A stretch of 64,000 bases of DNA from assembly GCA_001029675.1 (NCBI GenBank), contig CP011210.1:193-64192 (forward strand). Reading direction: 5' to 3'. The position numbers were made by a program, and so were the translations under genes. This stretch comes from Candidatus Beckwithbacteria bacterium GW2011_GWC1_49_16 (GTDB lineage Bacteria; Patescibacteriota; Microgenomatia; UBA1400; CG1-02-47-37). The notes below the pieces were generated by a model. The model was given only the letters and a program-made list of their open reading frames with translations. It was not told where the DNA came from and searched no databases. Of this stretch, positions 1-43,418 are shown in pieces (position 1 is the stretch's first letter; every line of letters starts with the position of its first letter).

Positions 1-590
1 TCCTTGAGGTTTCTTAGAAGGATCAAAGGAGCAATACAAGCCGTTACCACAAAGACTTTCGCAAGTTCCTTCACCTGGGCCTGCGCCTGGCGTTTGGGCA
101 CAGATTTGGGACGAGGGACACTCAATTTGGTCGTTACAGTATCCTCCCGGAGTCGCAACGCGACACTTGTCTGAATTATTGACGCAGGAGTAAATATCTT
201 TATCCCCTTCCTGTTTAACCTGACACTCTTGTCCCGGATTACAACCGGCAGCACTGCCGCACATCCCCTCAGAACCTACAAAGCACTCTCCAGTGGTTTC
301 TCGAGGACAAAACGCGTCACGTATACAGTAATAAATCTGATTAGGAAAGATGATGCTTTTATAACCTTTACATCGATAGCCTGGAAAACAACCGCCAACC
401 GTACCGCATTGACCAATCGTTCCTGTAGTGCCGCATTTAAGATCACTTTTTGCCTCGCTGCCAACCCTTTGAGAATTTTGTGCCTGAATTACCGCTAACC
501 CGAGAACCGCGACCAAAAACCCTAAGCCTAAAAGCGGTTTAAGCTTTTTATTCTTCTTAAAAAATTTCTTTAAGAATTTCACTGGTTTCA
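1..590 (-). CDS. Secreted cysteine-rich protein, C-terminally truncated by the window edge (absent from the ORF track because it has no stop)
   Basis: The reverse strand from the ATG at 590-588 reads MKPVKFLKKFFKKNKKLKPLLGLGFLVAVLGLAVIQA (a signal peptide) and then more than 150 aa with regularly spaced Cys/Gly (GTIGQCGTVGGCFPGYRC...). It is open to position 1. I translated it by hand with no stops. Confidence 0.55.
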
Positions 591-622
591 TGGTAGGCTT
601 TATGAAGTTGTTTTGTCAAGAG

Positions 623-1321
623 TTATTTACCCAAATTCTGCTGCTGTTTGGCGTACCAGTCGAGCACTTTATCAAGCTGCCCGGCGTCAAAGTCGGGGAA
701 TAAGGTGGCGGTAAAGTAGAGCTGGGCGTAGGCGGCTTGGTAAAGCATGAAGCCGGAAAAGCGCGAGTGGCCGCCGGGGCGGATGAGAAGGTCCGGGTCG
801 GGGAGGTCATGGGTGTCGAGGAAATTAGAGAAATTTTCTTCCGAAAATTTCTCTAGTTCGTAGTTCGTAGTTCGTAGTTCGTTGACAAATTTTTTGATGG
901 CGCGCAAGATTTCATCTCTGCCGCCATAGTTGATGGCAATGGTGACGGTAATTTTCTGATTATCTTTTGATTTTTGACGCCAATCTTCCAAAGATTTTTT
1001 GATGTCAGGTGGGAGCTTGGTAAGATCGCCGATTAAATTGAGCTTGGCACCCTTTTTTTGGTACTTGTCGACGTTTTCGTTAAAAAAACTTCGCAGTAAT
1101 TTGAAGTATCTATCGACCCAAGTTTTACCGCGGCGCCAGTTTTCGGTAGAAAAGACCCAGAAAGTAAGATAGGGAATTTTTAAATCAATGCAGCGGTCGA
1201 CCAAAGACTCCATGGTGACGCGGACAGCGTGTTCGTGGCCGGAAAACTCGGGCAAGTTTTTTAGTTTGGCCCAACGGCGGTTGCCGTCGGCGATGATGGC
1301 GATGTGCCGGGGAAGAGTCAT
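623..1321 (-). CDS. uppS: Undecaprenyl diphosphate synthase (cis-prenyltransferase)
   Basis: HIAIIADGNRRWA motif, and the C-terminal RPGG...SGFMLYQAAYAQLYF matches the UppS family. Confidence 0.93.
   Translation of the reverse strand: MTLPRHIAIIADGNRRWAKLKNLPEFSGHEHAVRVTMESLVDRCIDLKIPYLTFWVFSTENWRRGKTWVDRYFKLLRSFFNENVDKYQKKGAKLNLIGDLTKLPPDIKKSLEDWRQKSKDNQKITVTIAINYGGRDEILRAIKKFVNELRTTNYELEKFSEENFSNFLDTHDLPDPDLLIRPGGHSRFSGFMLYQAAYAQLYFTATLFPDFDAGQLDKVLDWYAKQQQNLGK
855..882. repeat. Exact heptad tandem repeat (AGTTCGT)x4 inside uppS; in the coding sense it is (NACGAAC)x4 and encodes NELRTTNYELE
   Basis: Read directly from the sequence at 855-882. Confidence 0.9.
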
Positions 1322-1323
1322 AG

Positions 1324-1659
1324 CTAAAAGATGTTGATGGCCAGGGTGGCCTCAAGCAGCTGGATGATCCAGTAAGAAGCAAAGATGACCAAGAAGCCAA
1401 CTAAGGCATTGACCAGCATACCCTGGCCTTTTTTGATTTTTTCCGGATTGCCGGCAGAGGTAAAAATGGTAAAGCCGCCGGCGACGATCATCCCCAGAAG
1501 AATAATGCCGGCGATGACAAAAACAAAAGGAATAACCAGGTTAATGATTTCTGCTGGGGTGGGTTTGTTGCCAAAATTCCAGCCGGAGCCGAAGATGCTC
1601 GAGTCGCCTTCGTCTATTTGGCCGATTCCTCCGGGGAATTGTAGAGCTAGTTTGGTCAT
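1324..1659 (-). CDS. TrbC/VirB2-like pilin-type small membrane protein (likely true start MTKLALQF...)
   Basis: A 111-aa protein with two hydrophobic helices and the motif FTIFTSAGNPEKIKKGQ, typical of TrbC/VirB2-like pilins. The longer 197-aa version in the ORF track is Arg-rich and unlikely; ATG at 1659. Confidence 0.55.
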   Translation of the reverse strand: MTKLALQFPGGIGQIDEGDSSIFGSGWNFGNKPTPAEIINLVIPFVFVIAGIILLGMIVAGGFTIFTSAGNPEKIKKGQGMLVNALVGFLVIFASYWIIQLLEATLAINIF

Positions 1660-2276
1660 TTGATAAACTCTGGTATTTGGAGGACGTCGACACCGATAAA
1701 GCGGAGAAGAAAAATTGAAAAAACAATGATCAGTAAACCGGAAAGGGCCGAGCCGATGATTTGTTTGCCGTCGTTGATTTTTTCCGGGTTGCCGGCGGCC
1801 AGGATGATGGTAATGCCGCCCCAGAGAGATAGGATGAAGGCAATGCCGCCGCCGGCCAAGATACCCCAGTATAAGAACCACTTGACCAAAGCGGCCGGGT
1901 CGTCTGTCGGGATACAACCTAGAGCGGTGGAAACGCCGTCACCTCCACCGGCCGCAGGACAAGGAGGAGGGGCGGTGCTGGTGCCGGGGGTAGTGCCTCC
2001 GCCGCCGGGAGAGGGGCTCGAGGCAGAACGACAGCCCCAATCACTGGGGTTGGTAATATCTCCCCCGATAAACTGGCAGGAGAAGCCCGAAGAGCAGCCA
2101 CCAGGGCAAGCGCCGCTAGGAGCGGGGGCGGTACACCACGAACATGTATCGCAAAGACCAATGGTACAATCACCAGACATACAGGTTGGAGAACAGGCTG
2201 CAAAAGCCTGCTTGGCAAAAAATAACGGGACAATTAACACCAAGCTACCTAAAAGCAGAGTTAGCAACTTTCTCAT
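1656..2276 (-). CDS. Secreted Cys-rich domain fused to a C-terminal TrbC/VirB2-like pilin domain
   Basis: Signal peptide MRKLLTLLLGSLVLIVPLFFAKQAFA, then a Cys/Gly/Pro-rich region, then AAGNPEKINDGKQ plus a transmembrane helix that is paralogous to the downstream gene. There is an ATGA start/stop overlap. Confidence 0.6.
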   Translation of the reverse strand: MRKLLTLLLGSLVLIVPLFFAKQAFAACSPTCMSGDCTIGLCDTCSWCTAPAPSGACPGGCSSGFSCQFIGGDITNPSDWGCRSASSPSPGGGGTTPGTSTAPPPCPAAGGGDGVSTALGCIPTDDPAALVKWFLYWGILAGGGIAFILSLWGGITIILAAGNPEKINDGKQIIGSALSGLLIIVFSIFLLRFIGVDVLQIPEFIK

Positions 2277-2323
2277 TACCTCAAGTTTAGCATAAGAAAG
2301 ACGATTGTTGATACAATAGAGAG

Positions 2324-4045
2324 GTGATGGGTAAATCGATAGTTAAAACCATAGTTAAAACGATAGCTTTGGTGGCAGTGTTGGCAGTAGTGGTAGTGGG
2401 GGTAAGGGCGATTGACCCGATTGACGATTTACAGCAGCAGATTAATCAGTTGTCAAGGGCGCGGGAGCAAAGCATTGCCGCTACCAAACCCTTGGAGGGC
2501 GAGCTGGCCCGGTTGACAGAGCAGCTAAACAGTATCAGGGCCGGGATCGAGCAGGCCAAGGGGCAGTTACGGGGCCTTGAGGCCAGCATTGCCGCGCGGG
2601 AAGCAGATTTTGCGGTCCAGTACGCCTTACTCTCCGAGCGGGTGGTGTCTTTTTACAAGGCCAGCCGGGCGCCGTCGGGACTGGTGCTTTTGTTGACCGG
2701 CGGGACGTCGTCAAACTTGATTTCGGACCTATTTTACCGGCAAACGGTGACTGACCAGGACAAACAGATTATCGCCCAGATTACGGCGGATTTGTTGCAG
2801 CTGGAAAAAGACAAACAAAAAGTCGAGGCGGATAGAGTCAGGTTGGCGGATTTACAGGCAAAGCTTGATAAAGAGGCGGAGTTTTTTGAGGGGGAGATTG
2901 CCGGGGCCAAGTCTTATCAGGCAAAATTGTCGCAACAGATCGCCTCACTGACGGCGCAGCAGCAGCAGATTATTGCCGCCAAACTGGGCAGTCTCAATTT
3001 GCCCCAGTCTTTGGGGGCGGGGCCTTTGTATTGTACCGACGACCGAAAACTTGACCCTGGGTTTGGCAGCGCCTTTGCTTTTTATACTTATGGTATTCCC
3101 CACAGGGTGGGGATGAACCAGTACGGGGCTTATGGCCGGTCCAAGGTAGGGCAGGATTACAGAGCGATTTTGAACGCCTACTTTAACAGTATTAGTTTTG
3201 AGGCAGGCAAGGAAAATATTCAGATTCAGGTTCAGGGGCAGGGGTCGATGCCGTTGGACGAATATTTACTGGGGATTTACGAGATGCCGGAAAGTTGGCC
3301 CTTGGAGGCGTTGAAGGCCCAGGCGGTGGCGGCCAGAAGCTATGCTTTGGCTTATACCGACAACGGCGCCAAAGAGATTTGCACCACCCAAGCGTGCCAG
3401 GTGTGGAAGCCGGAGAAGAAAACGGGTGCTTGGAAAACGGCGGTGGAGGCGACGCGGGGAGAGATTATGGTGAGCGGCGGCCAGACGGTGACGGGTTGGT
3501 ATTCTTCGACCGACGGCGGTTACACCTTTTACAACAGCGACGTTTGGGGCGGGAGCCAGCGGCCGTGGACCAAAAGAATGAGGGACACTTCGGGCGACGT
3601 CGGCGGTTTTGGCGATCTTAATGAGCGGGCTTACGACAAAGAGTCTCCGTGTTTTTATGCGGCGCAAGGTTGGAGAAATGAATACGGCAAGTCGGCCTGG
3701 CTTAAGGGTGAGGAGGTGGCCGACATTGCCAACGTGATTTTGCTGGCGAGAGCCGATTCGTCGGTACGAGCCCATCTTTATCAGGTAGACAAACCTAACC
3801 CCGAAGGCACCGATACCTGGGACGCGGCTCGCGTCAGGCAAGAGTTGTCCAGTCGAGGGGTAACGCCTTTAAGCGGAGGAGCGGGCAGTGTAGCGATCGG
3901 AGCCGATTTTGGCGAAGGCAGAACCACCCAGGTGACGGTCGACGGGGTGGCTTTTACCGGATCGGAGTTTAAAGACTGGTTTAACCTTAGGGCGCCGGCG
4001 AACATCCAGATTGTCGGGCCGCTGTATAACGTTGAAAGGAGATAA
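2324..4045 (+). CDS. SpoIID/LytB-domain protein with N-terminal TM anchor and coiled coil
   Basis: N-terminal transmembrane segment, a long Q/A/L/E-rich coiled coil, and a C-terminal domain with SpoIID-like motifs (AVAARSYAL, GWYSSTDGGYT). Confidence 0.7.
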   Translation: MMGKSIVKTIVKTIALVAVLAVVVVGVRAIDPIDDLQQQINQLSRAREQSIAATKPLEGELARLTEQLNSIRAGIEQAKGQLRGLEASIAAREADFAVQYALLSERVVSFYKASRAPSGLVLLLTGGTSSNLISDLFYRQTVTDQDKQIIAQITADLLQLEKDKQKVEADRVRLADLQAKLDKEAEFFEGEIAGAKSYQAKLSQQIASLTAQQQQIIAAKLGSLNLPQSLGAGPLYCTDDRKLDPGFGSAFAFYTYGIPHRVGMNQYGAYGRSKVGQDYRAILNAYFNSISFEAGKENIQIQVQGQGSMPLDEYLLGIYEMPESWPLEALKAQAVAARSYALAYTDNGAKEICTTQACQVWKPEKKTGAWKTAVEATRGEIMVSGGQTVTGWYSSTDGGYTFYNSDVWGGSQRPWTKRMRDTSGDVGGFGDLNERAYDKESPCFYAAQGWRNEYGKSAWLKGEEVADIANVILLARADSSVRAHLYQVDKPNPEGTDTWDAARVRQELSSRGVTPLSGGAGSVAIGADFGEGRTTQVTVDGVAFTGSEFKDWFNLRAPANIQIVGPLYNVERR

Positions 4046-4797
4046 TGGTAGACATCTTTGTGTCGGGAAAAAAGAAAGTCACCAGCAAGGTTGAACCCTC
4101 CTTCGCTGCAGCTCAGGTAAATAGCGCCAAAGGCGCTTCCCAGAAAGGGTTCAACCTTAAAAAGCCAGTGGAGCAAAAGCCAGGCTTGGGGGCAAAGTAC
4201 GTGACGGTGGAGGAGAGGCTCAAAGGGGAGAGGAGTAAACACCAGGCTCTAAGCGCTTTTTGCATTTTGCCCAGGGGGGTTAAGTTTGAAACCCAGGAAG
4301 TTAAAGAAAAGATTATTTTGCTTTTGCGCCAGCATTGGTTTACCCAGGTCGGTTGGCTGTTGACGGCACTAGCGATGGTGTTTTTGCCGGCTGCGTTGAG
4401 GGTAGTGCCGGTCATCGATTTTTTGCCGGCAAATTTCCAGTTTATGGCCATTGTTATCTGGTATCTGATCGTGATTGCTTTTGTCTATGAGAAGTTTATT
4501 TCCTGGTATTTCCATGTGTTTATCGTTACCGACGAGCGGGTGATCGACATTGATTTTTATAACTTACTTTACAAAGAGGTGAGTGAGGCCAAGATCGACA
4601 ACATCGAGGATGTGACTTACACCCAAGGCGGGGTGGCCAGAGCCGTGTTTGACTTTGGCGATGTGGCGATGCAGACGGCGGGGGAGAAGCGTGAGTTTAC
4701 CATCGAGAGCGTGCCCCAGCCTAACCGGGTGGTAAAGATTTTGAATGAATTAAAGCTCGAAGAAGAGCACGAGAAAATTATGGGGAGGGCGAGATGA
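4045..4797 (+). CDS. Membrane protein with bacterial PH (bPH_2, YdbS/YdbT-like) domain
   Basis: Two transmembrane helices followed by VTDERVIDIDF...IEDVTYTQGGV...FGDV, which is typical of bPH_2. The start overlaps the previous stop. Confidence 0.55.
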   Translation: MVDIFVSGKKKVTSKVEPSFAAAQVNSAKGASQKGFNLKKPVEQKPGLGAKYVTVEERLKGERSKHQALSAFCILPRGVKFETQEVKEKIILLLRQHWFTQVGWLLTALAMVFLPAALRVVPVIDFLPANFQFMAIVIWYLIVIAFVYEKFISWYFHVFIVTDERVIDIDFYNLLYKEVSEAKIDNIEDVTYTQGGVARAVFDFGDVAMQTAGEKREFTIESVPQPNRVVKILNELKLEEEHEKIMGRAR

Positions 4798-5048
4798 CGC
4801 CTTTTGACAAATTCATCGAGTTTATTACCCGGCAGGGAATGATTGAGTTGGAGGCGGTCATACTGGGCAAGGCGGCGGTGATCCTGTTGCTGCTACTTTA
4901 CCTGGCCTTTTCTTTGGTGGTGGTGCGGCAGGTGAATTTGATGAACAAAACCATTAACGGTTTAATGGAAAAGAGGCTTTTGGTGGCGGCCAAAGCCTTG
5001 GTGGGGCTGGCAATGGTAGTATTAATCTTAGGACTAATAGTGTTATGA
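4794..5048 (+). CDS. Small hydrophobic membrane protein
   Basis: 84-aa ORF, translationally coupled on both sides, with hydrophobic stretches. Confidence 0.4.
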   Translation: MTPFDKFIEFITRQGMIELEAVILGKAAVILLLLLYLAFSLVVVRQVNLMNKTINGLMEKRLLVAAKALVGLAMVVLILGLIVL

Positions 5049-6964
5049 AATTTAACGTGGCCAAAATTGTCGGGACGGTGAACCAAACCACTTGGTCGCA
5101 GGTGCACGTGTTTTTGCCGGAAGGGGAGAAACTTTCTAGCCATGGTCAGTTGATCGCGGCTTTGAGTTTTGCGGCCAAAAAGGAGATCGAGATTGCCTCA
5201 TTCGGTAAAGAGATAATTGTCAGACTCCAGGAGATTTATTATTCCAACGAGGCGGAAAGCAGGCTTAAAAAAGTATCCCAGAGTATGGAGAGTTTGGCGG
5301 CCGAGTTTTACAACGAGGTGGAGCTTAATATGGCGCTGGCGGTAATCGTGCCATTGGGGGAGAAAAAGCTGGTTTATGCCGGAAGAAGAGGCGGCGGGCA
5401 GGTGTATCTTAAAAGGGACGAGGCGGTGGTGGGGTTGTTGGCCGCCGAGGAAAACCAGCAGGTGGTTTCGGGCGAACTTAAGGCTTTCGACAAGCTGGTG
5501 GTGGGGACTAGTCAGTTTTTCAAGATTGTGCCGGAGAGCCATTTGGAGATGGCTTTAAAAGAGGATCGGGCCGAGGCGGCGGTGGAGAGTCTCGGGGCGC
5601 TGGTTCACGGCAGAGAGGAAAACAGCCAGGCAGCGGCAGCGGTGGTGATGCCCATTCGACAAGGCTTCGGCGGTGAGCTCAGCCCAACCGCTCAGGGTAA
5701 AGGGGTTGAGCCTGCCGACGTAAAAAGTCTATCAGCGGTGTCAAGGTTGACGGCGCTGGCGAGTTCGGCGGGGCAGAGATTTAGGGGATTAATTAAGCAA
5801 GCCGTGGAGAGAGTCAGTAAAAGAGGTGGGGCGGAAGTGTTTGTGAGACCGGGGGCGAGCCGGGGCAAAAAGTCGACGGCAACGGTGATGATCGTTTTGG
5901 TGGTGATTTTTGGCTTGAGCCTGGTGTTAGCGGGCAGGAAGCGCCAAGTTAGAGTCAGAGAGGAAAAATATCAAGCAGTGGTGGAGGAGGTAAGTTACAA
6001 GGTGGATGAAGGGGAAGGACTTTTGGAGCTTAATCCGCTTCGGGCCCGGTCGCTTTTAAGCGAAGCCCAGGGTTTGATTGACAACTACAAATCCGAGAAC
6101 GAGGGGGAGGTGAGCGGGGAGCTTTCCGATCTTGAAAAGAGGCTTGGCGATTTGTTGGCCCAGGCGCAAAGAGAGTACGCGGTAGAGTCGGCTGACGAGT
6201 GGTTTGATTTTGGTTTGGTCAAGGAAGGGTTTAAGGCGACGGCTTGGGCGAGCGACGAGGGCAAGGTGTTGATCTGGGGAGAAGGAGAGAGGACGGTGGT
6301 GGAGCTTGATTTGACCAGTAAGTCGAGCGAAATTGTGGCCGGGGGAGACGAGGTGGGGTCGGGGAACTTAATCGCTTTGACCGGAGAGCGGGGGATGGTG
6401 GTAGGGAAGGATAAAATGGTGGTGGTTGATGTCAGCGGCGGTGAGGTGGCGGCCGAGGTGGCGGCAGACGGCTGGGGCAGGATCGTGAGCGCGGTCGGCT
6501 TTGGGGGGAACCTGTATCTTCTTGACGCGGTTGATGGGGGGCAGATTTGGAAGTATTTTGGGGTGGAGGCTGGCCTGTCTGATAAGCGAGAGTATTTGGC
6601 CGGCGAAGCTTATGATTTAAGCGCGGCAGTGGCGATGGCGATCGACGCTTCTATCTATGTGTTGTTTGACGACGGGACGATTGTTAAATACACCAGAGGG
6701 GCTAAGGACGCTTTTGCGGTCACCGGGCTTAATGAACCGTTTGGCGAGCCGGTGGGTATTTTTACCGCCAGCGACCAGGACAATATCTACGTTTTGGACA
6801 GAGCCAAAACCAGAGTGGTGGTGGTAGACAAAAGCGGCGAGTACCAGGCCGAGTACCGCTGGCCGGGGATTGCCGGAGTGAAAGATTTGGTGGTGAACGA
6901 GGAGTTAGGCAAGATCTTTTTGTTGGCGGATGAAAAGGTGTTTACGCTTGATTTGAATAAATGA
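5045..6964 (+). CDS. Large hypothetical protein with central TM helix (cytoplasmic N-domain, Gly-rich extracytoplasmic C-domain)
   Basis: 639-aa ORF. A transmembrane helix at about aa 290-310 (TVMIVLVVIFGLSLVLAG) and a G/V/D-rich C-terminal region. No family recognised. Confidence 0.55.
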   Translation: MKFNVAKIVGTVNQTTWSQVHVFLPEGEKLSSHGQLIAALSFAAKKEIEIASFGKEIIVRLQEIYYSNEAESRLKKVSQSMESLAAEFYNEVELNMALAVIVPLGEKKLVYAGRRGGGQVYLKRDEAVVGLLAAEENQQVVSGELKAFDKLVVGTSQFFKIVPESHLEMALKEDRAEAAVESLGALVHGREENSQAAAAVVMPIRQGFGGELSPTAQGKGVEPADVKSLSAVSRLTALASSAGQRFRGLIKQAVERVSKRGGAEVFVRPGASRGKKSTATVMIVLVVIFGLSLVLAGRKRQVRVREEKYQAVVEEVSYKVDEGEGLLELNPLRARSLLSEAQGLIDNYKSENEGEVSGELSDLEKRLGDLLAQAQREYAVESADEWFDFGLVKEGFKATAWASDEGKVLIWGEGERTVVELDLTSKSSEIVAGGDEVGSGNLIALTGERGMVVGKDKMVVVDVSGGEVAAEVAADGWGRIVSAVGFGGNLYLLDAVDGGQIWKYFGVEAGLSDKREYLAGEAYDLSAAVAMAIDASIYVLFDDGTIVKYTRGAKDAFAVTGLNEPFGEPVGIFTASDQDNIYVLDRAKTRVVVVDKSGEYQAEYRWPGIAGVKDLVVNEELGKIFLLADEKVFTLDLNK

Positions 6965-11197: not shown

Positions 11198-11282
11198 GGT
11201 GGGGTGCTCCGAATCGGTTAAGGAACCGGTCTTGAAAACCGGCGCCCGCAAGGGCTTGTGAGTTCGAGTCTCACCCCCACCG
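11198..11282 (+). tRNA. tRNA-Ser (anticodon UGA)
   Basis: Acceptor GGTGGGG/CCCCACC; anticodon stem CCGGT/ACCGG with loop CTTGAAA; long variable arm GCCCgcaaGGGC; T-arm GTGAG-TTCGAGT-CTCAC. Folded by hand. Confidence 0.75.
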
Positions 11283-11294
11283 CTAGAATTGTCT

Positions 11295-11840
11295 TTAAGA
11301 GCGGAAGCCAATCTCGGAAATTTCAATTGGGTTGGACTCAAGTTTGTAAGGCCGATCTTTGGCAAAATCTACCATGTCAGGCGATCTGTAAAGCTGATAG
11401 CCTTCTTTTATAAACAGCCCAACAACCTCAATAGGAGTAATCTGAGGGGTGTAGAAAGTTCTGTCGGACAGTGAATAAGCCCAAATGAAAGAATCTCTCA
11501 TTTGGTGGAGACGGGCACCTTTGGGAGTATAGATGAGTCGTTTTGTATCGCCCAAAACTGCGACCGTACCCGACATTTGTTCTTGCGGGTCGGATATAAA
11601 AGGAAAGTACCGGTAGCTGACCCCCGAGCCGATTATCGGAGCCCTGATGTCGTTATCTATGTTTAGCGGCGCGCTCAAATTTTCGAGCTGTTGGTCGGTA
11701 ATAGCGTGGATGACAAACGGAAGACCTGAGCCAATCAGATTTTCTACCAAGGCAACCAGGGGTTGTCGTGGATGGGTGACAACCTCGAACTTAATAGTCT
11801 TAGGGCTGATTTCTCTGGTAAAAAACGGCCTTTCGGACAT
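11295..11840 (-). CDS. Hypothetical protein
   Basis: 181-aa ORF with non-repetitive composition. No family recognised. Confidence 0.45.
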   Translation of the reverse strand: MSERPFFTREISPKTIKFEVVTHPRQPLVALVENLIGSGLPFVIHAITDQQLENLSAPLNIDNDIRAPIIGSGVSYRYFPFISDPQEQMSGTVAVLGDTKRLIYTPKGARLHQMRDSFIWAYSLSDRTFYTPQITPIEVVGLFIKEGYQLYRSPDMVDFAKDRPYKLESNPIEISEIGFRS

Positions 11841-11886
11841 AAGTTTGAGGATTATATCATTGTTTAGAGGCTGTTGGGTTTAATTT

Positions 11887-11892
11887 GATATA
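11887..11892 (+). promoter_or_regulatory. Candidate -10 box (TATAAT) upstream of tRNA-Ser(GCU)
   Basis: TATAAT lies 13 nt upstream of the tRNA start. Confidence 0.3.
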
Positions 11893-11904
11893 ATGGGTTT
11901 TACT

Positions 11905-11991
11905 GGAGGAGTCGCTTAGTTGGTCCATAGCGGTGGTTTGCTAAACCGCTGAGGCGCAAGCCTCACGTGGGTTCGAATCCCACCTCCTCCG
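11905..11991 (+). tRNA. tRNA-Ser (anticodon GCU)
   Basis: Acceptor GGAGGAG/CTCCTCC; anticodon loop TTGCTAA; long variable arm; T-arm GTGGG-TTCGAAT-CCCAC. Confidence 0.75.
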
Positions 11992-12085
11992 CCTTCGTTT
12001 CACGACTTGCTCGCTCGGCGATTTAGCCGGCTTCGCATTCGGAAGCTTCGGCGGACAGGTCCGCTTTGGTGTAGAATAAATAAAT

Positions 12086-12649
12086 ATGACTGCCCTGTTT
12101 AGAAAACCAAGCCCTTTAAAAAAAGAAGAGGTTAAGGAATCGGAAGCGCCTAAGGCTCCTGTAAAAGTGGAAACGCTACTTTCCTGGCAGGCGCCGGTGC
12201 GGCCGTTTAAGAAAAGAGATCGGGAATACTACACCACCATTGGTGCCATCGGCTTTTTGCTGGCGGTGATACTCCTTTTTTTGAAAGAGTGGCTGTTGAT
12301 CGCTGTGATTGCGGCCTTGATGTTTGTGGCTTATGTTTTGGCCACGGTCGAGCCGGAAAAAACCAGCCACGAGATTACCACGGTGGGAATTCTAACGGGG
12401 GATAAGACTTACAAATGGGAAGACTTGAAGCGGTTTTGGTTTGAGACCAAGTGGAGCGATAAGATTTTACACGTCGACACCAAGCTTAGCTTTCCGGGAA
12501 GACTGATGCTCCTTTTAGGCGATACCAGCGAAGAAGAAGTGAAGAAAATTCTTGAACAGCACGTTCAGGAAGAGATACCCGAGGCGACGTTTATGGACAG
12601 GTCGGCTAAGTGGTTATCGGAAAAAGTGCCTTTGGAAAAAGAAAGCTGA
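12086..12649 (+). CDS. Hypothetical membrane protein
   Basis: 187-aa ORF with two adjacent transmembrane helices (IGAIGFLLAVILLF..., LLIAVIAALMFVAYVLA). Confidence 0.5.
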   Translation: MTALFRKPSPLKKEEVKESEAPKAPVKVETLLSWQAPVRPFKKRDREYYTTIGAIGFLLAVILLFLKEWLLIAVIAALMFVAYVLATVEPEKTSHEITTVGILTGDKTYKWEDLKRFWFETKWSDKILHVDTKLSFPGRLMLLLGDTSEEEVKKILEQHVQEEIPEATFMDRSAKWLSEKVPLEKES

Positions 12650-12663
12650 TAAAATACAGGTAG

Positions 12664-12735
12664 GCGCCCATAGTTGAATGGATACAACGGAAGATTGCGG
12701 ATCTTCTGGTGAAGGTTCGATTCCTTCTGGGCGCA
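12664..12735 (+). tRNA. tRNA-Arg (anticodon reads GCG; unusual)
   Basis: Acceptor GCGCCCA/TGGGCGC; D-arm GTTG-aatggata-CAAC; anticodon stem GAAGA/TCTTC with loop TTGCGGA; T-arm GAAGG-TTCGATT-CCTTC. Confidence 0.6.
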
Positions 12736-12846
12736 CCCATGAGCATTGACTCGGCAGACAAAAATTTTTAGCAGTGCTCACTCGGCGCCACATGGATATG
12801 CGCCATCTTCCGCGCTGGAAAATTTGTCTGCCTGCGTCTGACTATT

Positions 12847-12929
12847 GGAGGGGTGTGCCGAATGGTAAGGCACCGCTCTCGAAAAGCGGCGCCCGCAAGG
12901 GCTTGCAGGTTCGACTCCTGTCCCCTCCG
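12847..12929 (+). tRNA. tRNA-Ser (anticodon CGA)
   Basis: Acceptor GGAGGGG/CCCCTCC; anticodon stem CCGCT/AGCGG with loop CTCGAAA; long variable arm; T-loop TTCGACT. Confidence 0.75.
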
Positions 12930-12937
12930 CAACGTAA

Positions 12938-13011
12938 GCGCCTGTAGCTCAGAGGATTAGAGCGTCTGCCTCCGGAGCAGAAGGTCGTGAGTTCGAGTCT
13001 CACCAGGCGTA
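12938..13011 (+). tRNA. tRNA-Arg (anticodon CCG)
   Basis: Acceptor GCGCCTG/CAGGCGT; anticodon stem TCTGC/GCAGA with loop CTCCGGA; T-arm GTGAG-TTCGAGT-CTCAC. Confidence 0.75.
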
Positions 13012-13013
13012 CT

Positions 13014-13481
13014 ATGAAATCAAAGTCACGACGAGAGTTTTCGGCCGGGGGAGTGGTATACAGGAAACTCGAAGTACGAAACTCGAAGCACGAAACTGTT
13101 TGGTTGGTGTGCAAGCACTCGGGCTATCATCGCTGGGTATTGCCTAAAGGTTTGGTGGAGAAGGGGGAGAGTTTAAAAGACACGGCGGTGCGGGAAGTAG
13201 AGGAGGAGTGTGGCGTTAGAGCCAAAGTAATTGCTAAAATCCCCGAGCCGGAGCGCTACGTTTACACCATGGCTGGGCAAAAAGTGTTTAAGCTGGTGAC
13301 TTATTTTTTGATGGAGTATCAGTCGGGAAACATAAAAGATCACTCGTGGGAGATGGAAGAAGTGGAGTGGTTAGAGTTTGACCAAGCGGTCAAAAGGGTC
13401 GAGTTTAAGGGGGCAAAAGAAGTGTTGGAAAAGGCTAAAAAAATCAGAGACGAGCTGAAGCTAAAACAGAAGTTGATATAA
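13014..13481 (+). CDS. Nudix hydrolase
   Basis: Nudix box GLVEKGESLKDTAVREVEEECGV. The start is taken at the ATG at 13014, just after the tRNA-Arg; the 12987 start in the ORF track overlaps that tRNA. Confidence 0.8.
   Translation: MKSKSRREFSAGGVVYRKLEVRNSKHETVWLVCKHSGYHRWVLPKGLVEKGESLKDTAVREVEEECGVRAKVIAKIPEPERYVYTMAGQKVFKLVTYFLMEYQSGNIKDHSWEMEEVEWLEFDQAVKRVEFKGAKEVLEKAKKIRDELKLKQKLI
13068..13095. repeat. CGAA-heptad x4 element (ctcgaag tacgaaa ctcgaag cacgaaa) in frame in the Nudix gene
   Basis: Read directly from the sequence. It encodes KLEVRNSKHET, which is an insertion relative to the usual Nudix N-terminal strand. Confidence 0.8.
13476..13481 (+). promoter_or_regulatory. Candidate -10 box (TATAAT) upstream of tRNA-Ser(GGA)
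   Basis: TATAAT lies 12 nt upstream of the tRNA start. Confidence 0.3.
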
Positions 13482-13493
13482 TAGGAGAGTCTT

Positions 13494-13582
<89 letters not shown>

Positions 13583-17317: not shown

Positions 17318-17389
17318 TCCGGGGTAGCTCAATGGCAGAGCAAGCGCCTGTTAAGCGCAAGGTTGCGAGTTCGAATCTCGCCTCCGGAG
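17318..17389 (+). tRNA. tRNA-Asn (anticodon GUU)
   Basis: Acceptor TCCGGGG/CTCCGGA with a U1; anticodon loop CTGTTAA, as in the E. coli Asn tRNA; T-arm GCGAG-TTCGAAT-CTCGC. Confidence 0.8.
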
Positions 17390-17437
17390 CACATCATACA
17401 AAGTTCGAATTATTGATTCCAGTGTTATACTTTAATA

Positions 17438-33772: not shown

Positions 33773-34531
33773 ATGGAAGCGAGAGACTTTAAGCAAAGAT
33801 TAAAGGCGGCGGAAAGCCTCTTGGCTCAAAAAACCACCAGCCGGACTAAGTTTGAGGCGGCACGAAAGCTAATCTCCGGGATTAATCCGACGCTTGACGC
33901 CAAATTGAAGCGGGTGGCCAAGGTTTTGGCGACGGTGGAGAAAATAAAAAAGGGTAAAGTGATCGAGCTGGCGGCCGAGCGCTTGTCGGCGGGTACCCCC
34001 GAGCAGAAAAAAAGAAAAAAGAAATTACTGCTTTTGATTAATGCTTGGAAAGACTTAAAGGCAGAGGTTGGCAGGGTGAGAAGCGAGTTTGAAAAACCAG
34101 ACGCCAAAGGAATGGCTCAATTGGCAGCTTACGCCAAAGGCCCATTGGGGTTGGTAACAGCAGCGGCAGCGGTAGTGGTGGGGGCAGGTTGGTGGTTGAG
34201 TCAGAATGCGGCTGAAGTCGAGCTAGTCAACCGCGGCTGTGACCCGATTCAGCCGGCGGTGTCCCGGACGCTTAACTTGCCGGGCTTGAGGCTGCCGAGC
34301 CAGCCGATTGGCGACGGGGAATCAGCGGTGGCTTTAGTGCCGCCTTTAAAAGTGGCGGTAGAGGGTGGAGAGCGGCAAGTGGGTTTGTCAATTTACGGTT
34401 TGAAGATGGGGTTTGAGCTTGCGGAAGGAGCCAGCGATGTCAAGTACGACGGCCAGTCGCTTTTAAACCAAACCAATGTGATCAAGCTAGCGCCGGGATC
34501 GAGGCACCAAGTAGAGCTTGAGTGCGATTAA
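33773..34531 (+). CDS. Hypothetical protein with one TM helix
   Basis: 252-aa ORF whose 3' end overlaps the convergent VKOR gene by about 45 nt. Confidence 0.45.
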   Translation: MEARDFKQRLKAAESLLAQKTTSRTKFEAARKLISGINPTLDAKLKRVAKVLATVEKIKKGKVIELAAERLSAGTPEQKKRKKKLLLLINAWKDLKAEVGRVRSEFEKPDAKGMAQLAAYAKGPLGLVTAAAAVVVGAGWWLSQNAAEVELVNRGCDPIQPAVSRTLNLPGLRLPSQPIGDGESAVALVPPLKVAVEGGERQVGLSIYGLKMGFELAEGASDVKYDGQSLLNQTNVIKLAPGSRHQVELECD

Positions 34532-34897
34532 AAACAGCGCCAGCATGACTATTTGGCAGGCGCCGCAGACGGGGCAAAAAACCTTTTCGACAAAGATTTC
34601 CAAGTAGGTGAGTCTTAAGCAAAAGACCATGCCAAAGGCGGCCATGGCGAGCATCAGTTTGGGGAGTTTCATCAGGGCAGAGTAAAGAATCAGGATGTAG
34701 CCGACTAGACCGATGAGGGCGACGGGCAGGCCCAAGAATTCGGCCAAAGGCCCCTTGGTGACGGCGTCGCAGTTGACGGTGGCGGTAATGTCGCACAGCC
34801 CCGGAGGGACGGGGGCAAGGTAGGAGTAGAAAAGGTAGCTGGCCAGGATAATGCCGAAGACAGAGAGCCAAGTGGCGGCTTTATAGAGTTTAGCCAT
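34487..34897 (-). CDS. Vitamin K epoxide reductase (VKOR) family membrane protein
   Basis: Taking the start at MAKLYKA... (ATG at 34897), it has loop Cys residues (CDITATVNC), a CPVCGAC active-site motif and four transmembrane helices. Confidence 0.7.
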   Translation of the reverse strand: MAKLYKAATWLSVFGIILASYLFYSYLAPVPPGLCDITATVNCDAVTKGPLAEFLGLPVALIGLVGYILILYSALMKLPKLMLAMAAFGMVFCLRLTYLEIFVEKVFCPVCGACQIVMLALFLIALKLYLVPRSRR

Positions 34898-35743: not shown

Positions 35744-37450
35744 ATGCCCTTGAGCCTGCCCCAAGTCCAGGAGATTGTTTTAAAGTCTGGTAAAGTTTCC
35801 CCAGAAGATTTAAACGAGGCGGTAAAGACAGCCAAGCATTTAGAAGTGCCTTTGGAAGAAGTGTTGGTGGGGAGACGTTTGATTTCACCGGAAGAACTAG
35901 GCGGGTTACTCGCCGAGGCTTACCGGATTTCTTATCTAGACCTTAAAACCCTGGAGCTTAACCGGGAGGTTTTAAAGCTGGTGGCGGAAGAGTTTGCCGA
36001 GAGCCATCATGTAGTGCCGGTGGAGGTGCGCGACAACGTGGTGACTTTGGCGATGGAAGACCCCAGCGACTTGGAAGCGATCGAGTTTGTTAAAAAACAG
36101 ACCGGTTATGGAGTGATGCCGGCGTTTACCGACAAGGCAGGGATGAGTCAGGCCTTGCGGCTTTATAAGGGAACTTTAAAAGAAGAGTTTGCCGAGTTGG
36201 TAGAAAAGACGACGGTAAAAAGAGTAGACGTTAACCGACCGTTAGTAGAGCTAGCCAAAGACGTGTCGGTGGTAAAGGCAGTGGACGCGCTTCTTTCTTC
36301 GGCCGTGGTGGAACAGGCTTCGGACATTCATCTGGAGCCTTTGGGGAATGAGGTAGTAGTCAGATATAGGATCGACGGAGTCTTAAACGATGTCTTGATT
36401 TTACCCTCAGAGCTTCATCCGGCGCTGGTAGCCAGGATCAAGATTCTTGCCAACCTTAAACTTGACGAGACCAGGCTGCCTCAGGACGGCAGGATGCAGT
36501 TTTTGAGCAAAAAAGGCGACAAGGTGTCGCTTAGGGTGTCGGTGTTGCCGACGGTAGAAGGGGAGAAGGTAGTTTTGAGAATTTTAGAAGAAGTGCTTCA
36601 GCATTTTTCTCTGAATTCTTTGGGGCTTGAGGCAGACCAGGAAAAACGGGTGGCCAGGTCGATTAATAAGCCGCACGGGATGGTGCTGGTGACCGGGCCG
36701 ACCGGGTCGGGCAAGACGACGACGCTTTACACCATTTTGGGGATGTTGAATACTGTCGGGGTAAACATTTGCACCGTTGAAGACCCGGTGGAAAACAGGA
36801 TCAGGCGGGTAAACCAAACCCAGGTTAATCCGCAGGCAGGCTACAGCTTTGCCACTGGGTTGAGGAGTTTGTTGCGGCAAGACCCGGACATTATCATGGT
36901 GGGAGAAATCAGGGATCAGGAGACAGCGAAAATCGCCGTCAACGCGGCCATGACCGGGCATTTGGTGTTGTCGACGCTTCACACCAATGACGCGCCGGGG
37001 ACGGTGCCGCGGCTGCTTGATTTATCGGTAGAGTCGTTTTTGCTGGCGTCAACTTTGGAGCTGGTGGTGGCTCAAAGGTTGATTCGTAAAGTGTGTAAGC
37101 ATTGTTTAGTGGAGTACGCGCCGCAAAAAAACTGGGAGGAGACGTTAAAGCAGGTGGTCAATGATGAGGCGGAACTAACAGAGGTGTTGACGCTTTTTCC
37201 TAAAAAATTAATCGGGGGCAAAGGCTGTCCTAAGTGCCGTTATTCCGGCTACAGGGGCAGGATGGGAATTTTTGAAGTCATGGGAGTGAGTGAAGCAATG
37301 AGGGAACTGATTGTGAAGCAAAAGTCTGGGGCAGAATTGAGGCGGGTGGCGAGGGCTGAGGGGATGAAGTCGATGTTGATGGCGGGGATGATGAAGGTGG
37401 CTTCCGGGGTGACGACGGTGGAGGAAGTACTTAGGGTCAGTCTGGAGTGA
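35744..37450 (+). CDS. pilB: Type IV pilus assembly ATPase PilB/GspE
   Basis: Walker A GPTGSGKTTT, the Asp box, the His box GHLVLSTLHTND and a C-terminal zinc motif CPKC. Confidence 0.9.
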   Translation: MPLSLPQVQEIVLKSGKVSPEDLNEAVKTAKHLEVPLEEVLVGRRLISPEELGGLLAEAYRISYLDLKTLELNREVLKLVAEEFAESHHVVPVEVRDNVVTLAMEDPSDLEAIEFVKKQTGYGVMPAFTDKAGMSQALRLYKGTLKEEFAELVEKTTVKRVDVNRPLVELAKDVSVVKAVDALLSSAVVEQASDIHLEPLGNEVVVRYRIDGVLNDVLILPSELHPALVARIKILANLKLDETRLPQDGRMQFLSKKGDKVSLRVSVLPTVEGEKVVLRILEEVLQHFSLNSLGLEADQEKRVARSINKPHGMVLVTGPTGSGKTTTLYTILGMLNTVGVNICTVEDPVENRIRRVNQTQVNPQAGYSFATGLRSLLRQDPDIIMVGEIRDQETAKIAVNAAMTGHLVLSTLHTNDAPGTVPRLLDLSVESFLLASTLELVVAQRLIRKVCKHCLVEYAPQKNWEETLKQVVNDEAELTEVLTLFPKKLIGGKGCPKCRYSGYRGRMGIFEVMGVSEAMRELIVKQKSGAELRRVARAEGMKSMLMAGMMKVASGVTTVEEVLRVSLE

Positions 37451-37451
37451 T

Positions 37452-38678
37452 ATGGCGCAGTTTAAGTACTTAGTCAGTCTTAAAGGCGAGGAAGAGGCGG
37501 GAGTCTTGGAAGCCGACTCTTTGGCGGAAGCGGCGGAAAAATTAACCGAGCAAGGAGGGTATATTTTGAAGCTGGTGCCGCGGTTTTCCTTGGGGCCGGC
37601 AAGGGTAAGGCAGTGGTTGGAAGAGGCAATGGCCGCCGGAGAGGGGATGAAGGCGAGTGAAAAAATTTTGTTTACTACCCAATTGGGGTCGATGCTCAAA
37701 ACCGGGCTGCCGATAATCGAGGCGATCGAGGTGTTTGTGGAGGAAAAAGGCGGCGGCTCGTCGGCGTTACTGCGGCAAATCATGGAGCAGCTTAAAAGCG
37801 GCAAAAAATTGTCGCGGGCTTTGGAGAGATATGCTAAAGTATTTGACCGGGCTTACGTCAACGTGGTCCGTTCGGGAGAAACAATGGGGACTTTGGCTGA
37901 GAGTTTGGAGTATTTAGGGGATCAAATGAGGCGAGAGCACGAGTTAAAGGTTAAGGTTCGCTCGGCGATGATTTATCCGCTGGTGGTGGTGATTGCTATG
38001 GCGGCGGTGATGACGTTTATTTTGCTGTCGGTGGTGCCCAAGATCGTGATTTTTGCCGAGAATTCTGGAGCCCAGCTGCCGAGGATAACTGCCATAATGG
38101 TGGCGGCAACAGGTTGGCTTAATAAGTTTTGGTGGTTGGCGCTTTTGGCGGTGACCTTTGTCGGGGGTTTAGTTTGGAGATTAACCAAAACCAAGGAGGG
38201 CAAGAAGTTTTTTGCCGGGTTGGTTTTGAAGCTGCCGGTGTTAGGCAGCTTGGTGGCGCGCTACAACCAGGTGAGGTTTGCGCGGTTACTCGCTGGGTTT
38301 TATGCCCATGGGATTAGCGTCGAGTCGGCGTTTGAGATTCTATCTGAATCGCTAACTAACTATTATTACTCTGAAGCGTGTTTGAGGCTGAAGCAAAAGC
38401 TGGTGATGGGGAGGAGTTTATCGGAGGCGTTGGAGTCGGAAAAAAAGCTGTTTCCGCCGATTATGAGCCGGGTGGTTAAAGGGGCGGAGAGGACGGGGGA
38501 TTTAGACAAGACTTTGACCAGGCTGTCGACCTACTACGAACAGGAGTTGGAAACGGCTTTAAAGAATTTGACCACGATTATCGAGCCGGTATTGATCGTA
38601 CTATTAGGAGTCGGGGTGATCGGGATTGCGCTGGCGGTGATTGTGCCGATTTATCGAGTTACCACGCAACTGAAATGA
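37452..38678 (+). CDS. pilC: Type IV pilus inner-membrane platform protein PilC/GspF
   Basis: Two GspF repeats (IEPVLIVLLGVGVIG) and typical length. Confidence 0.88.
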   Translation: MAQFKYLVSLKGEEEAGVLEADSLAEAAEKLTEQGGYILKLVPRFSLGPARVRQWLEEAMAAGEGMKASEKILFTTQLGSMLKTGLPIIEAIEVFVEEKGGGSSALLRQIMEQLKSGKKLSRALERYAKVFDRAYVNVVRSGETMGTLAESLEYLGDQMRREHELKVKVRSAMIYPLVVVIAMAAVMTFILLSVVPKIVIFAENSGAQLPRITAIMVAATGWLNKFWWLALLAVTFVGGLVWRLTKTKEGKKFFAGLVLKLPVLGSLVARYNQVRFARLLAGFYAHGISVESAFEILSESLTNYYYSEACLRLKQKLVMGRSLSEALESEKKLFPPIMSRVVKGAERTGDLDKTLTRLSTYYEQELETALKNLTTIIEPVLIVLLGVGVIGIALAVIVPIYRVTTQLK

Positions 38679-39106
38679 AGTCAAACGGTTTTACTTTTTT
38701 GGAAATTTTGGTAGTGATGGCGATGATGGCGACGATGGGGATAGCCGGGGTTATAACTTACGGTCGGGTACAGAGACAAGAAGAAATGACGGCAGTGGTG
38801 GTGACCGTAGCGGAAATTTTAGCCAGGGCTAGAGTGGGTTCGGTGAGCGGAGACAAGGATACCAGTTGGCGGGTCGATCTTCTGGCCAACAAGGCGGAGT
38901 TAAAGGATGGCTTGGGCAACTTGGTGGTCCAGTACAGCCTACCGGCAAGATACAGTTTGAGTTCGCCGGTGAGTCAAGTCGAGTTTGGGCGGGGTGACGG
39001 CCGGGTGGCCGGTTGTGAGTCGGGGTGTTTAGTCACCGTTAGCCAACTGGGGGGGAGTTTAAGCCAGAGCTTTCGCATTTTGTATTCAGGGGTAGTGGAG
39101 TACTAA
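38675..39106 (+). CDS. Prepilin-type (pseudopilin/minor pilin) protein
   Basis: N-terminal MKSNGFTFLEILVVMAMM is a class III signal and N-methylation motif. Confidence 0.75.
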   Translation: MKSNGFTFLEILVVMAMMATMGIAGVITYGRVQRQEEMTAVVVTVAEILARARVGSVSGDKDTSWRVDLLANKAELKDGLGNLVVQYSLPARYSLSSPVSQVEFGRGDGRVAGCESGCLVTVSQLGGSLSQSFRILYSGVVEY

Positions 39107-39570
39107 TGAGGCGGGGTTTTACACTAGTCGAAGTGTTGGTAGCCTTGGCGTTACTTTCGACTTTGGTGGTAGGAGTGGTGACTTTGACCGGTTTATCCAC
39201 GAAGGCGAGCGCCACCTTGAGGTTGAAAGCATCGGCCGGAGCGATATTGACAAAAACGATGGAGGCGACGCTGGCAGTGAGAGCCTCAAACTTTGGCAGT
39301 TTGACCGAGGGAACTTTTCATCCAGAAGTGGTGGGGGGGAAGTGGGCTTTGACCCCCGGTAAAGAAACGGTGGATGGGGTAGAACGCTGGGTGGAGATTT
39401 CCCGGGTGCAGCGGGAAGTTTCTTGCGGCGGTGAAAGGGTGTGCCCGATCGTTGACAGCGGCGGAGTGGTAGACCCGGTTACTTTTAGAGGGAAAGCTTT
39501 TGTTTCTTGGAGTGAGTTAGGAGAGGTGAGACAAGAGAGTTTAGAAAGTTTGTTGACTTTTTGGAGGTAA
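39106..39570 (+). CDS. Prepilin-type minor pilin
   Basis: MRRGFTLVEVLVALALLS. Confidence 0.75.
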   Translation: MRRGFTLVEVLVALALLSTLVVGVVTLTGLSTKASATLRLKASAGAILTKTMEATLAVRASNFGSLTEGTFHPEVVGGKWALTPGKETVDGVERWVEISRVQREVSCGGERVCPIVDSGGVVDPVTFRGKAFVSWSELGEVRQESLESLLTFWR

Positions 39571-41472: not shown

Positions 41473-41476
41473 GTTA

Positions 41477-42922: not shown

Positions 42923-43418
42923 AAAGATATTGCTCTCGGTGGGGATTTTGGTTTCAATCAGCTTGATGTTGGTGGTGAGGAAGGAGTGGATAGCAGTCAG
43001 CCAAGTAGAAAGGGAAGTTGAGGCTAAGGCTGTTAAGGTTAAAGACCTTGATGCCTTGGTTTTCGAGCAGCAGTTTGTGGAAAAGGATTACGACCAGCTG
43101 AAGCGTTTTTTCCCTGAAGGAGAAGAGGGGGTGGCGCGGGTGGCAGAAAGTTTGGAGGCGATGGCGGCAAGTAGCGGAGTGGTGTTACGCTTAGAGTTTG
43201 AAGATTTTCCGGATCGGGTGGATATTGGTGGGGCGTATCAAACGGGCTTGGCGATTGAAGCGGTAGTGGAGGGCCCGTATCAGAGCGTTATTTCTTGGCT
43301 TAAGGCGGTGGAGGCTCTGCCTTATTTTGTCAAGCTTACCGATGTTAAAGTGGGTCCGCCGCGGTTGGGTGGGGGAGGGGTGAGGGCCGAATTTAGCGGG
43401 GTGATATTTTTAAGATGA
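42915..43418 (+). CDS. PilO-like pilus assembly protein
   Basis: N-terminal transmembrane helix plus coiled coil. Its position after pilM/N is the main evidence. Confidence 0.45.
   Translation: MVKKILLSVGILVSISLMLVVRKEWIAVSQVEREVEAKAVKVKDLDALVFEQQFVEKDYDQLKRFFPEGEEGVARVAESLEAMAASSGVVLRLEFEDFPDRVDIGGAYQTGLAIEAVVEGPYQSVISWLKAVEALPYFVKLTDVKVGPPRLGGGGVRAEFSGVIFLR

Follow-up and report, generated by a model that had tools for sequence, protein, structure and literature searches.

Why should a patescibacterium keep two pilin-type genes, one of them carrying a secreted cysteine-rich domain, beside cell-wall genes and apart from any recognisable secretion genes? The question is raised by a 64,000-nucleotide stretch of Candidatus Beckwithbacteria bacterium GW2011_GWC1_49_16 (GenBank assembly GCA_001029675.1, contig CP011210.1, positions 193 to 64,192), which we call the window. 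Near its left end lie two genes, both on the minus strand, that we refer to as gene A (1656-2276) and gene B (1324-1659). An original prediction made from the DNA letters had described them as tandem TrbC/VirB2-like pilin genes sharing the motif AGNPEKI(K/N)xG(Q/K), and the motif as given is exact. We are highly confident that the two genes are paralogues within the pilin family PF18895. Gene A is predicted to encode a pilin with an exchangeable extracellular head, and we tentatively propose that such heads may recognise host cells.

The shared motif reads AGNPEKINDGK in gene A and AGNPEKIKKGQ in gene B. In AlphaFold2 (AF2) models it is the loop between two transmembrane helices; the C-terminal module originally predicted, with the motif placed before a single helix, was thus right in its motif and wrong in its arrangement. 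The two proteins are 33% identical over 76 amino acids (BLASTP E=1e-8), and a profile-profile comparison of their families with hhalign gives a probability of 99.1% (E=7e-19). On these comparisons genes A and B are true paralogues, with a similarity far beyond chance. The start codon of gene B overlaps the stop codon of gene A by four nucleotides (ATGA), an arrangement of translational coupling.

The family was assigned with the models PF18895 (T4SS_pilin; gathering cut-off 26.6 bits) and NF045849 (Mbov_0395 family pilin-like conjugal transfer protein; curated cut-off 40 bits). Gene B passes the PF18895 cut-off with 32.6 bits (E=8.7e-8, profile positions 6-69 of 71). Gene A, with 18.7 bits (E=0.0019, amino acids 137-194), falls below it and was assigned to the family because its core is 45-75% identical to 48 homologues, many of which carry a precomputed PF18895 match, and because of the hhalign link to the gene B family. 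PF18895 is also matched by all 11 paralogues of the genome (best E=1.3e-11) and by 42 of 42 members of the signal-peptide-bearing subfamily described below. NF045849 is matched below its cut-off by gene B (21.2 bits, E=1.7e-4) and by 10 of the 11 paralogues (best E=9.4e-9), and not by gene A. A TrbC/VirB2 identity, as first suggested, did not survive the hidden Markov model check: neither gene matches PF04956 (TrbC/VirB2) at E<=1, and weak matches are confined to three of the 11 paralogues (best E=0.018) and two of the 42 subfamily members (best E=0.23). By the sequence tests run, the pair therefore files under PF18895 and not under TrbC/VirB2, and its link to VirB2 and type IV secretion is drawn from topology, gene context and the literature. 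The nearest plasmid relatives (tblastn E 7e-3 to 6, not significant alone) are annotated 'pilin' or 'Mbov_0395 family pilin-like'. On Bacillota plasmids they form part of modules with the order pilin, PrgI, VirB4, (large protein) and M23 peptidase. A search of PDB sequences with a profile of 50 gene B orthologues returned G-protein-coupled receptor transmembrane noise and no pilin.

The N-terminus of gene A reads as a classical signal peptide, MRKLLTLLLGSLVLIVPLFFAKQAFA followed by A at the cleavage site, with an n-region MRK, a hydrophobic region of 17 amino acids and an AxA site; the strongest hydropathy window of the protein is found here. The ectodomain of 88 amino acids contains 18 Gly, 13 Ser, 12 Pro and 11 Cys, as counted over 89 residues, and is also rich in Thr, so the signal peptide and the Cys/Gly/Pro-rich ectodomain foreseen for this gene are both borne out. 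Together with Cys121 of the neck, the total comes to 12 cysteines. Four of those in the ectodomain form a C-x3-C-x5-C-x14-C module (C57-C82), which is followed by a Gly/Ser/Thr/Pro linker (amino acids 89-100) that is disordered in the AF2 model. Next comes the neck, VSTALGCIPTDDP (TALGCIPTDDP, amino acids 117-127), and after it a pair of hydrophobic helices with AAGNPEKINDGK between them; the protein ends in the tail VLQIPEFIK. In the alignment of the gene A family T117, G120, G143, G144, G162 and P164 are invariant, and C121 is nearly so. The AF2 model places a signal-peptide helix at 2-24, a neck beta-hairpin at 113-123 and two long pilin helices at 127-159 and 164-193 (predicted local distance difference test, pLDDT, 75-83); the Cys region has low pLDDT except for a small beta-hairpin at 65-84. 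We considered reading the sequence AFAAC as a lipoprotein signal and rejected it. Lys22 interrupts the hydrophobic region and Cys28 belongs to the even cysteine count, so that cleavage by signal peptidase I and disulfide bonding are favoured.

The head may vary even within the population. The variant P0099 (169 amino acids) carries an in-frame deletion of 37 amino acids that removes exactly one four-cysteine module (C57, C61, C67, C82). The deletion sits between GCGGCG direct repeats in the region corresponding to window positions 1941-2108, and at the same spot assembly GCA_003534915.1 has an NN gap (L007, ~9670). This variant suggests strain-level heterogeneity in the gene A head. Apparent truncations of gene A in three assemblies were traced to N-gaps or differences in gene calling and are not real variation.

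The architecture predicted for gene A, a signal peptide, a hypervariable ectodomain with an even number of cysteines, a conserved GCIPTDP neck and a pilin hairpin, defines a large subfamily. Its 50 closest database homologues are 124-296 amino acids long. A signal-peptide-like hydrophobic peak at the N-terminus (>1.8) is found in 47 of them and the neck sequence G-C-I-P-T in 33, and the AGNPEK-type loop is recognisable in all but two; most of the 27 homologues examined at full length end in LQ(I/L)PGF. Signal peptide and neck are separated by an insert whose length is 6-176 amino acids among proteins with cores about 70% identical; it resembles the gene A insert no more closely than shuffled controls do, even if the cores are 70-75% identical. 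The ectodomain has an even number of cysteines in 45 of 47 homologues, and in 107 of the 111 best representatives of an exhaustive profile search. Since the inserts cannot be aligned, the parity is kept up independently, and this strongly supports an oxidised domain outside the cell. A cysteine precedes the neck by 7-15 residues, so that the shortest members have exactly two.

The inserts are of several types. Some are small Cys-rich modules, and others (P0106, P0109) are larger and poorer in cysteine. The ectodomain of P0127 matches the beta-defensin model PF13841 (E=6.5e-6), and another headed pilin weakly matches gamma-thionin; some heads may thus adopt defensin-like disulfide folds. The exhaustive profile search returned 29,968 representative clusters at E<=1e-3 and 2,790 (clusters at 50% identity) at E<=1e-30, so that the subfamily numbers at least 2,790 such clusters. 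Among its top members the ectodomain measures 144 amino acids in the median (range 59-335). The predicted headed pilin is therefore a widespread architecture and not a curiosity of one genome.

Gene B lacks both a signal peptide and a head. It consists of a hydrophilic N-terminal tail of 34 amino acids followed by two hydrophobic helices flanking SAGNPEKIKKGQ; AF2 models the helices at 35-66 and 72-106 with pLDDT above 90 and leaves the tail disordered. The tail is hydrophilic in 50 orthologues with a conserved Met1, and in a set of 97 homologues both Met1 and the motif MxxLALxFPGG are conserved. The loop has a net charge of +2 and the tail is acidic, a pattern that agrees with the positive-inside rule. 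In gene A the signal peptide would place the ectodomain outside, so that helix 1 would run from outside to inside, the loop would be cytoplasmic and the C-terminus would again be outside. In VirB2 and TraA, the pilins of the T- and F-pilus, the loop is likewise cytoplasmic and both termini are outside. The predicted topology of gene A would thus be that of VirB2 and TraA.

The pair occupies a conserved locus. Three other Microgenomatia (loci L041, L042 and L043) share a common gene order with the window, namely SmpB, a protein of ~600 amino acids, a DUF5657 protein, a bPH-like membrane protein and SpoIID, followed divergently by a signal-peptide-bearing pilin, a pilin lacking a signal peptide and UppS. 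The two pilin genes are spaced by a 4-nt overlap, a 1-nt overlap or a 5-nt gap, and the second pilin in the three other loci is the orthologue of gene B (40-58% identity). BacA lies near the pair in L043. In two of the three loci (L041 and L043) an extracytoplasmic function (ECF) sigma factor and a pilin array, then a protein of ~850-970 amino acids, are found a few kilobases further on.

A similar arrangement is present here beyond the left edge of the window, where a metagenome scan supplied the extension (L020). Leftward from the window come the rest of a Cys-rich gene cut by the window edge, an operon for the mevalonate pathway on the opposite strand, genes for a small membrane protein and an ECF sigma factor, a pilin array and an M23 protein. 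The array consists of nine tandem PF18895 pilin genes, divergently transcribed, that lie ~9 kb left of the window (L020 6403-9601) and encode proteins of 111, 110, 117, 116, 123, 102, 110, about 110 and 130 amino acids, the last with a signal peptide and two cysteines. It is followed by a secreted protein of 808 amino acids that carries an M23 peptidase domain at its C-terminus (PF01551 E=9.4e-15; L020 9585-12011), so that array and M23 gene together span about 9-15 kb left of the window. One related member of the Beckwithbacteria has the same nine-gene array, at a contig end. The genome thus holds at least 11 paralogous PF18895 genes with a mutual identity of 20-40%. Between pilin pair and array, one syntenic slot is occupied by the mevalonate pathway here (L001 12485-18790) and in L042, but by the methylerythritol phosphate (MEP) pathway in L041 (11497-16338); this appears to be a swap of isoprenoid pathways at a fixed position.

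Core genes of a type IV secretion system (T4SS) are not found close by. By Pfam (precomputed matches and extra scans), VirB4, VirB6, VirD4 and a relaxase are all missing from the window, in which several open reading frames (ORFs) have no family assignment; the original remark that the window lacks T4SS core genes holds as far as Pfam shows. A full conjugative T4SS just upstream was looked for and not found, and no VirB4 was found within 6 kb past the array and the M23 gene. However, the inference that the pilins are orphans does not extend to the genome. A nine-gene array lies nearby. In addition, proteins identical to those of genes A and B are found on many contigs from the Rifle aquifer and in GCA_001003755.1 (Candidatus Beckwithbacteria bacterium GW2011_GWC2_49_11), GCA_001774335.1, GCA_001774295.1 and GCA_003534915.1, and Quiñonero-Coronel et al. 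2025 (PMC12102498, Table S1) enter 'VirB4: Yes' for all four of these source assemblies. The pair can accordingly be called orphan within the window only. The homologues are labelled Beckwithbacteria, Microgenomates or Daviesbacteria.

Tandem VirB2-like pilins in Patescibacteria have already been published, and genes A and B are new members of that family. A series of predicted pilins inside the T4SS cluster of Southlakia epibionticum ML1 (SEML1_0006-0019) is essential (Wang et al. 2023, PMC10633639). A survey of Patescibacteria counted 1,948 assemblies with VirB2-like pilins (PF18895 or PF04956) and 441 arrays, each of 2-11 genes; the arrays are found especially in Microgenomatia, where T4SS genes are often scattered (PMC12102498). 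The pilins of those arrays average 25% identity, and no adhesin was detected for the Patescibacteria T4SS (PMC12102498); the host-binding role is thereby left vacant. Our locus resembles these arrays in family, phylum, array-rich class, tandem divergent paralogues, monoderm-type setting and the lack of a relaxase nearby; being adjacent and overlapping, genes A and B themselves count as an array under the published definition (2-11 pilin genes in tandem or one non-pilin gene apart; PMC12102498). In contrast to the published arrays, the A/B pair is detached from the nine-gene array and from virB4 and lies in a SpoIID/UppS locus. The signal peptide and hypervariable disulfide-rich ectodomain of gene A are mentioned in neither PMC10633639 nor PMC12102498, and in the literature searched we found no description of the headed, signal-peptide-bearing subfamily, of its pairing with a headless pilin, or of the separate SpoIID/UppS locus.

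The likeness to VirB2, TrbC and TraA lies in the hydrophobic two-helix hairpin of ~70-90 amino acids with a short loop, a presumed multi-gene T4SS context with a wall hydrolase, a predicted precursor signal peptide (in gene A only) and a putative topology with both termini outside. Those pilins belong to diderm bacteria, whereas the host here is monoderm; there is no significant sequence or profile match to them, no sign of cyclisation and no VirB5. We know of no VirB2 with a folded N-terminal domain. Mbov_0395-family or 'pilin' genes (NF045849) belong to integrative and conjugative elements of Mollicutes and to conjugative plasmids of Bacillota, and the pilin-PrgI-VirB4-M23 modules in which the weak tblastn hits fall mirror the array and M23 gene described here. 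However, those genes are single-copy on mobile elements, and the present ones are multi-copy, chromosomal and at a conserved core-genome position. Bartonella and Anaplasma, which also depend on a host, likewise have tandemly amplified and diverged pilin genes in their T4SS, and these multi-copy VirB2 paralogues have been proposed to vary the host-facing surface (PMC12102498). In those bacteria the variation lies within the pilin itself, whereas in our family most of it falls in a distinct cassette fused N-terminally to a conserved pilin core. A 'Pam pilus' described in a 2026 preprint on Candidate Phyla Radiation (CPR) bacteria is a different system, based on donor-strand exchange between immunoglobulin folds.

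We propose the following mechanism. The products of genes A and B would be held in the membrane as a pool of pilins, from which a monoderm-type T4SS, with its VirB4 encoded elsewhere, would extract subunits and polymerise them into a pilus or a short conduit through the wall. Wall hydrolases would assist, among them the M23 protein encoded behind the array, and the SpoIID protein next to the pair may be another. The shaft would be built from gene B and the headless array paralogues, and gene A would supply a minor subunit or the tip. Its head would be held on a flexible Gly/Ser/Thr/Pro linker and a disulfide-closed neck, stand out from the filament surface and bind to the host cell. Replacement of heads between close relatives would then set or shift host specificity. 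We hold this explanation as a whole to be somewhat more likely than not, and put its adhesin-pilus mechanism at not quite an even chance. The more general proposal is that Patescibacteria recognise their hosts through the T4SS pilus by means of PF18895 pilins with signal peptides and swappable heads, which would serve as its adhesins and are arranged in Microgenomatia as a two-gene module with a headless partner apart from the main array; this we regard as rather less likely than not. Host-attachment fibres had already been suggested for this locus, and the idea is plausible as something that we infer rather than observe.

Several observations weigh against the proposed mechanism. Besides the lack of a PF04956 match in either gene, comparison of two pilin alignments (A4 and A2) by hhalign with a four-sequence VirB2/TrbC alignment gave a probability of 0.3-0.7%; the latter was built from sequences fetched from Ti-type plasmids and is shallow (Neff 1.8), which makes this a weak negative, and it aligned just the 'TDPA' segment before helix 1, without significance. 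A Foldseek search with the AF2 hairpin was not discriminating (best E=2; the conjugation pilus 8dfu at rank 19, E=4.4). Unlike classical prepilins, nine of the 11 paralogues lack a signal peptide. An N-terminal domain of 60-330 amino acids on every subunit may not fit VirB2-type packing, and no pilus built from PF18895 has been visualised in the literature searched. Moreover, VirB4, VirB6 and PrgI could be recognised neither in the window nor in the 10 kb past the array, which makes the coupling of the pair to a T4SS indirect. The conserved neighbours of the pair are cell-wall genes (SpoIID, UppS) and not secretion genes, and the adhesin role of gene A is a putative one.

Some of these points would be accommodated if the proteins did not polymerise at all. 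The hairpin of gene A could simply anchor a variable domain at the cell surface, with gene B as a membrane partner or chaperone. Such a display function would be in keeping with the lack of a nearby T4SS core gene, with the separation of the pair from the main array in four lineages, with the fact that a PF18895 filament has not been observed in the literature searched, and with the size of the ectodomains (median 144 amino acids in top family members), which would crowd a VirB2-type helical lattice. However, the core of gene A is a full-length conserved pilin hairpin, including the loop and a glycine-rich helix 1, and is thus more constrained than mere anchoring would require. In S. epibionticum related pilin arrays lie within a T4SS cluster and are essential, and the close pairing with a headless pilin, conserved as it is, suggests that the two assemble together. 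We consider display without polymerisation unlikely. The neighbourhood itself invites another explanation, in which the pair has nothing to do with secretion and belongs to an envelope or peptidoglycan module with SpoIID and UppS; it might, for example, have a regulatory function like that of holins or antiholins, or organise wall synthesis or division from within the membrane. The synteny of SpoIID, pilin pair and UppS in four divergent Microgenomatia, with BacA near the pair in one of them, speaks for such a module, and small proteins with two transmembrane segments beside a wall hydrolase resemble holin/endolysin layouts. Nevertheless, the pilin pair matches no PHROG or holin family, and the lack of PHROG matches leaves a holin or phage origin unsupported. 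PF18895 membership is clear, 10 of the 11 paralogues match the conjugal-transfer pilin model, and a signal peptide with a hypervariable ectodomain of up to 330 amino acids is unlike a holin. T4SS loci themselves include wall hydrolases, so that the neighbourhood is also compatible with a pilus. An envelope function of this kind is, in our judgement, improbable.

Finally, the genes could be the remains of a decayed conjugative element, left without a machine and drifting or randomly co-opted, as the lack of a relaxase, coupling protein or VirB4 in the window might suggest. The state of the locus argues otherwise: it is intact and syntenic across lineages in which the orthologues share no more than 40-58% identity, the two genes are tightly coupled and free of frameshifts in five assemblies, the genome is VirB4-positive, and the family is huge and conserved, as its 29,968 clusters attest. 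Decay is accordingly a very improbable account. The adhesin pilus remains our preferred reading of the pair.

Table 1. Features at the left end of the window, with positions numbered from its first nucleotide.
Feature	Position	Strand	Basis
Cys-rich orphan, secreted or anchored, first 197 of 258 aa	1..591	-	translation
uppS (undecaprenyl-diphosphate synthase)	623..1321	-	PF01255 E=6.6e-67, TIGR00055 E=4.3e-64
Gene B, 111-aa PF18895 pilin without signal peptide	1324..1659	-	PF18895 above cut-off
Gene A, 206-aa signal-peptide-bearing PF18895 pilin with N-terminal Cys/Gly/Pro/Ser-rich ectodomain	1656..2276	-	ORF call and homology
Gene A conserved neck and two-helix pilin hairpin, aa 115-206	1659..1934	-	alignment, AF2
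Gene A hypervariable disulfide-rich ectodomain, aa 27-114	1935..2198	-	Cys positions, homologue comparison
Gene A signal peptide, aa 1-26, predicted cleavage between AFA and A	2199..2276	-	read from sequence
Divergent intergenic region, about 50 bp, between gene A and SpoIID-domain gene	2277..2326	.	ORF coordinates
Coiled-coil and SpoIID/LytB-domain (peptidoglycan-remodelling) protein, divergent	2324..4045	+	PF08486 E=3.2e-20, TIGR02669 E=3.4e-40
bPH-like membrane protein 250 aa, DUF5657 protein 84 aa, 639-aa protein	4045-6964	+	syntenic in four lineages

The gene uppS begins two nucleotides downstream of gene B, and 31 nucleotides then separate it from the Cys-rich gene at the window edge. 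A perfect 7-nt tandem repeat of 4.1 copies lies inside uppS at 854-882, within a patch (UppS amino acids ~143-165) that is wholly different between the window and the otherwise near-identical copy on L001 (232 versus 237 amino acids); UppS thus has an insert that, on comparison of the two copies, is strain-variable. The truncated Cys-rich gene had been noted in the original prediction, where its boundary was given one nucleotide short, at 590, and the intervening uppS was not mentioned. Its full product of 258 amino acids has an N-terminal signal or anchor and 22 cysteines, with about four repeats of C-x8-C-x5-C-x5-C-x13-C. It matches nothing in Pfam, NCBIfam or PHROG, its database matches are limited to its own 98%-identical cluster, and it is not present in the three syntenic loci. 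We therefore rejected it as part of the conserved module and regard it as a lineage-specific orphan. A shared origin with the gene A head is not shown either (BLASTP E=0.28), the two having in common just a C-x3-C-x5-C-x13/14-C spacing.

On the other side of the pair, the intergenic region between gene A and the SpoIID-domain gene contains no convincing sigma-70-like promoter or terminator; the scan was uninformative, with three promoter-like sites against 2.0 expected and no terminators. The C-terminal end of the 639-aa neighbour weakly matches the NHL-repeat family model NF035926, and DUF5657 is not mentioned in the literature searched.

Further into the window, precomputed Pfam matches identify a complete-looking type IV pilus (T4P, not T4SS) cluster at 35744-44281 on the plus strand, with a PilB/MshE-type ATPase, PilC, several N_methyl pseudopilins and PilM/PilN/PilO. 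This is a second, unrelated surface-filament system. A VKOR homologue (PF07884) is encoded at ~34487-34897 on the minus strand; it is plausibly an extracytoplasmic disulfide-forming enzyme, consistent with the many secreted proteins that have even cysteine counts. A tRNA cluster at 11198-13582 and 17318-17390 on the plus strand contains four tRNA-Ser and two tRNA-Arg among short ORFs, plus tRNA-Asn, and genes for NiFe-hydrogenase-like large (PF00374) and small (PF01058) subunits lie at 49357-51154 on the minus strand. GC skew is positive over the whole window (0.08-0.33) and nearly all long ORFs are on the plus strand; the minimum of 0.08 falls over 1-2000, where the pilin operon is on the minus strand.

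Much of bacterial diversity is patescibacterial, and these organisms spend their lives attached to other microbes. T4SS and pilin genes are essential for the epibiont lifestyle in the one species tested. Headed pilins are concrete candidates for host recognition by CPR bacteria, with the prediction that swapping heads would change host range, and the GCIPTDP neck together with the AGNPEK loop provides a marker with which they can be mined. If the proposal is correct, they would be the first VirB2-type pilins with a folded receptor-binding domain of their own, filling the gap left by the finding of no adhesins, and turnover of head cassettes would determine which host an epibiont attaches to. 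Should the heads be displayed only at the cell surface, they would still constitute a major, fast-evolving class of CPR surface proteins.

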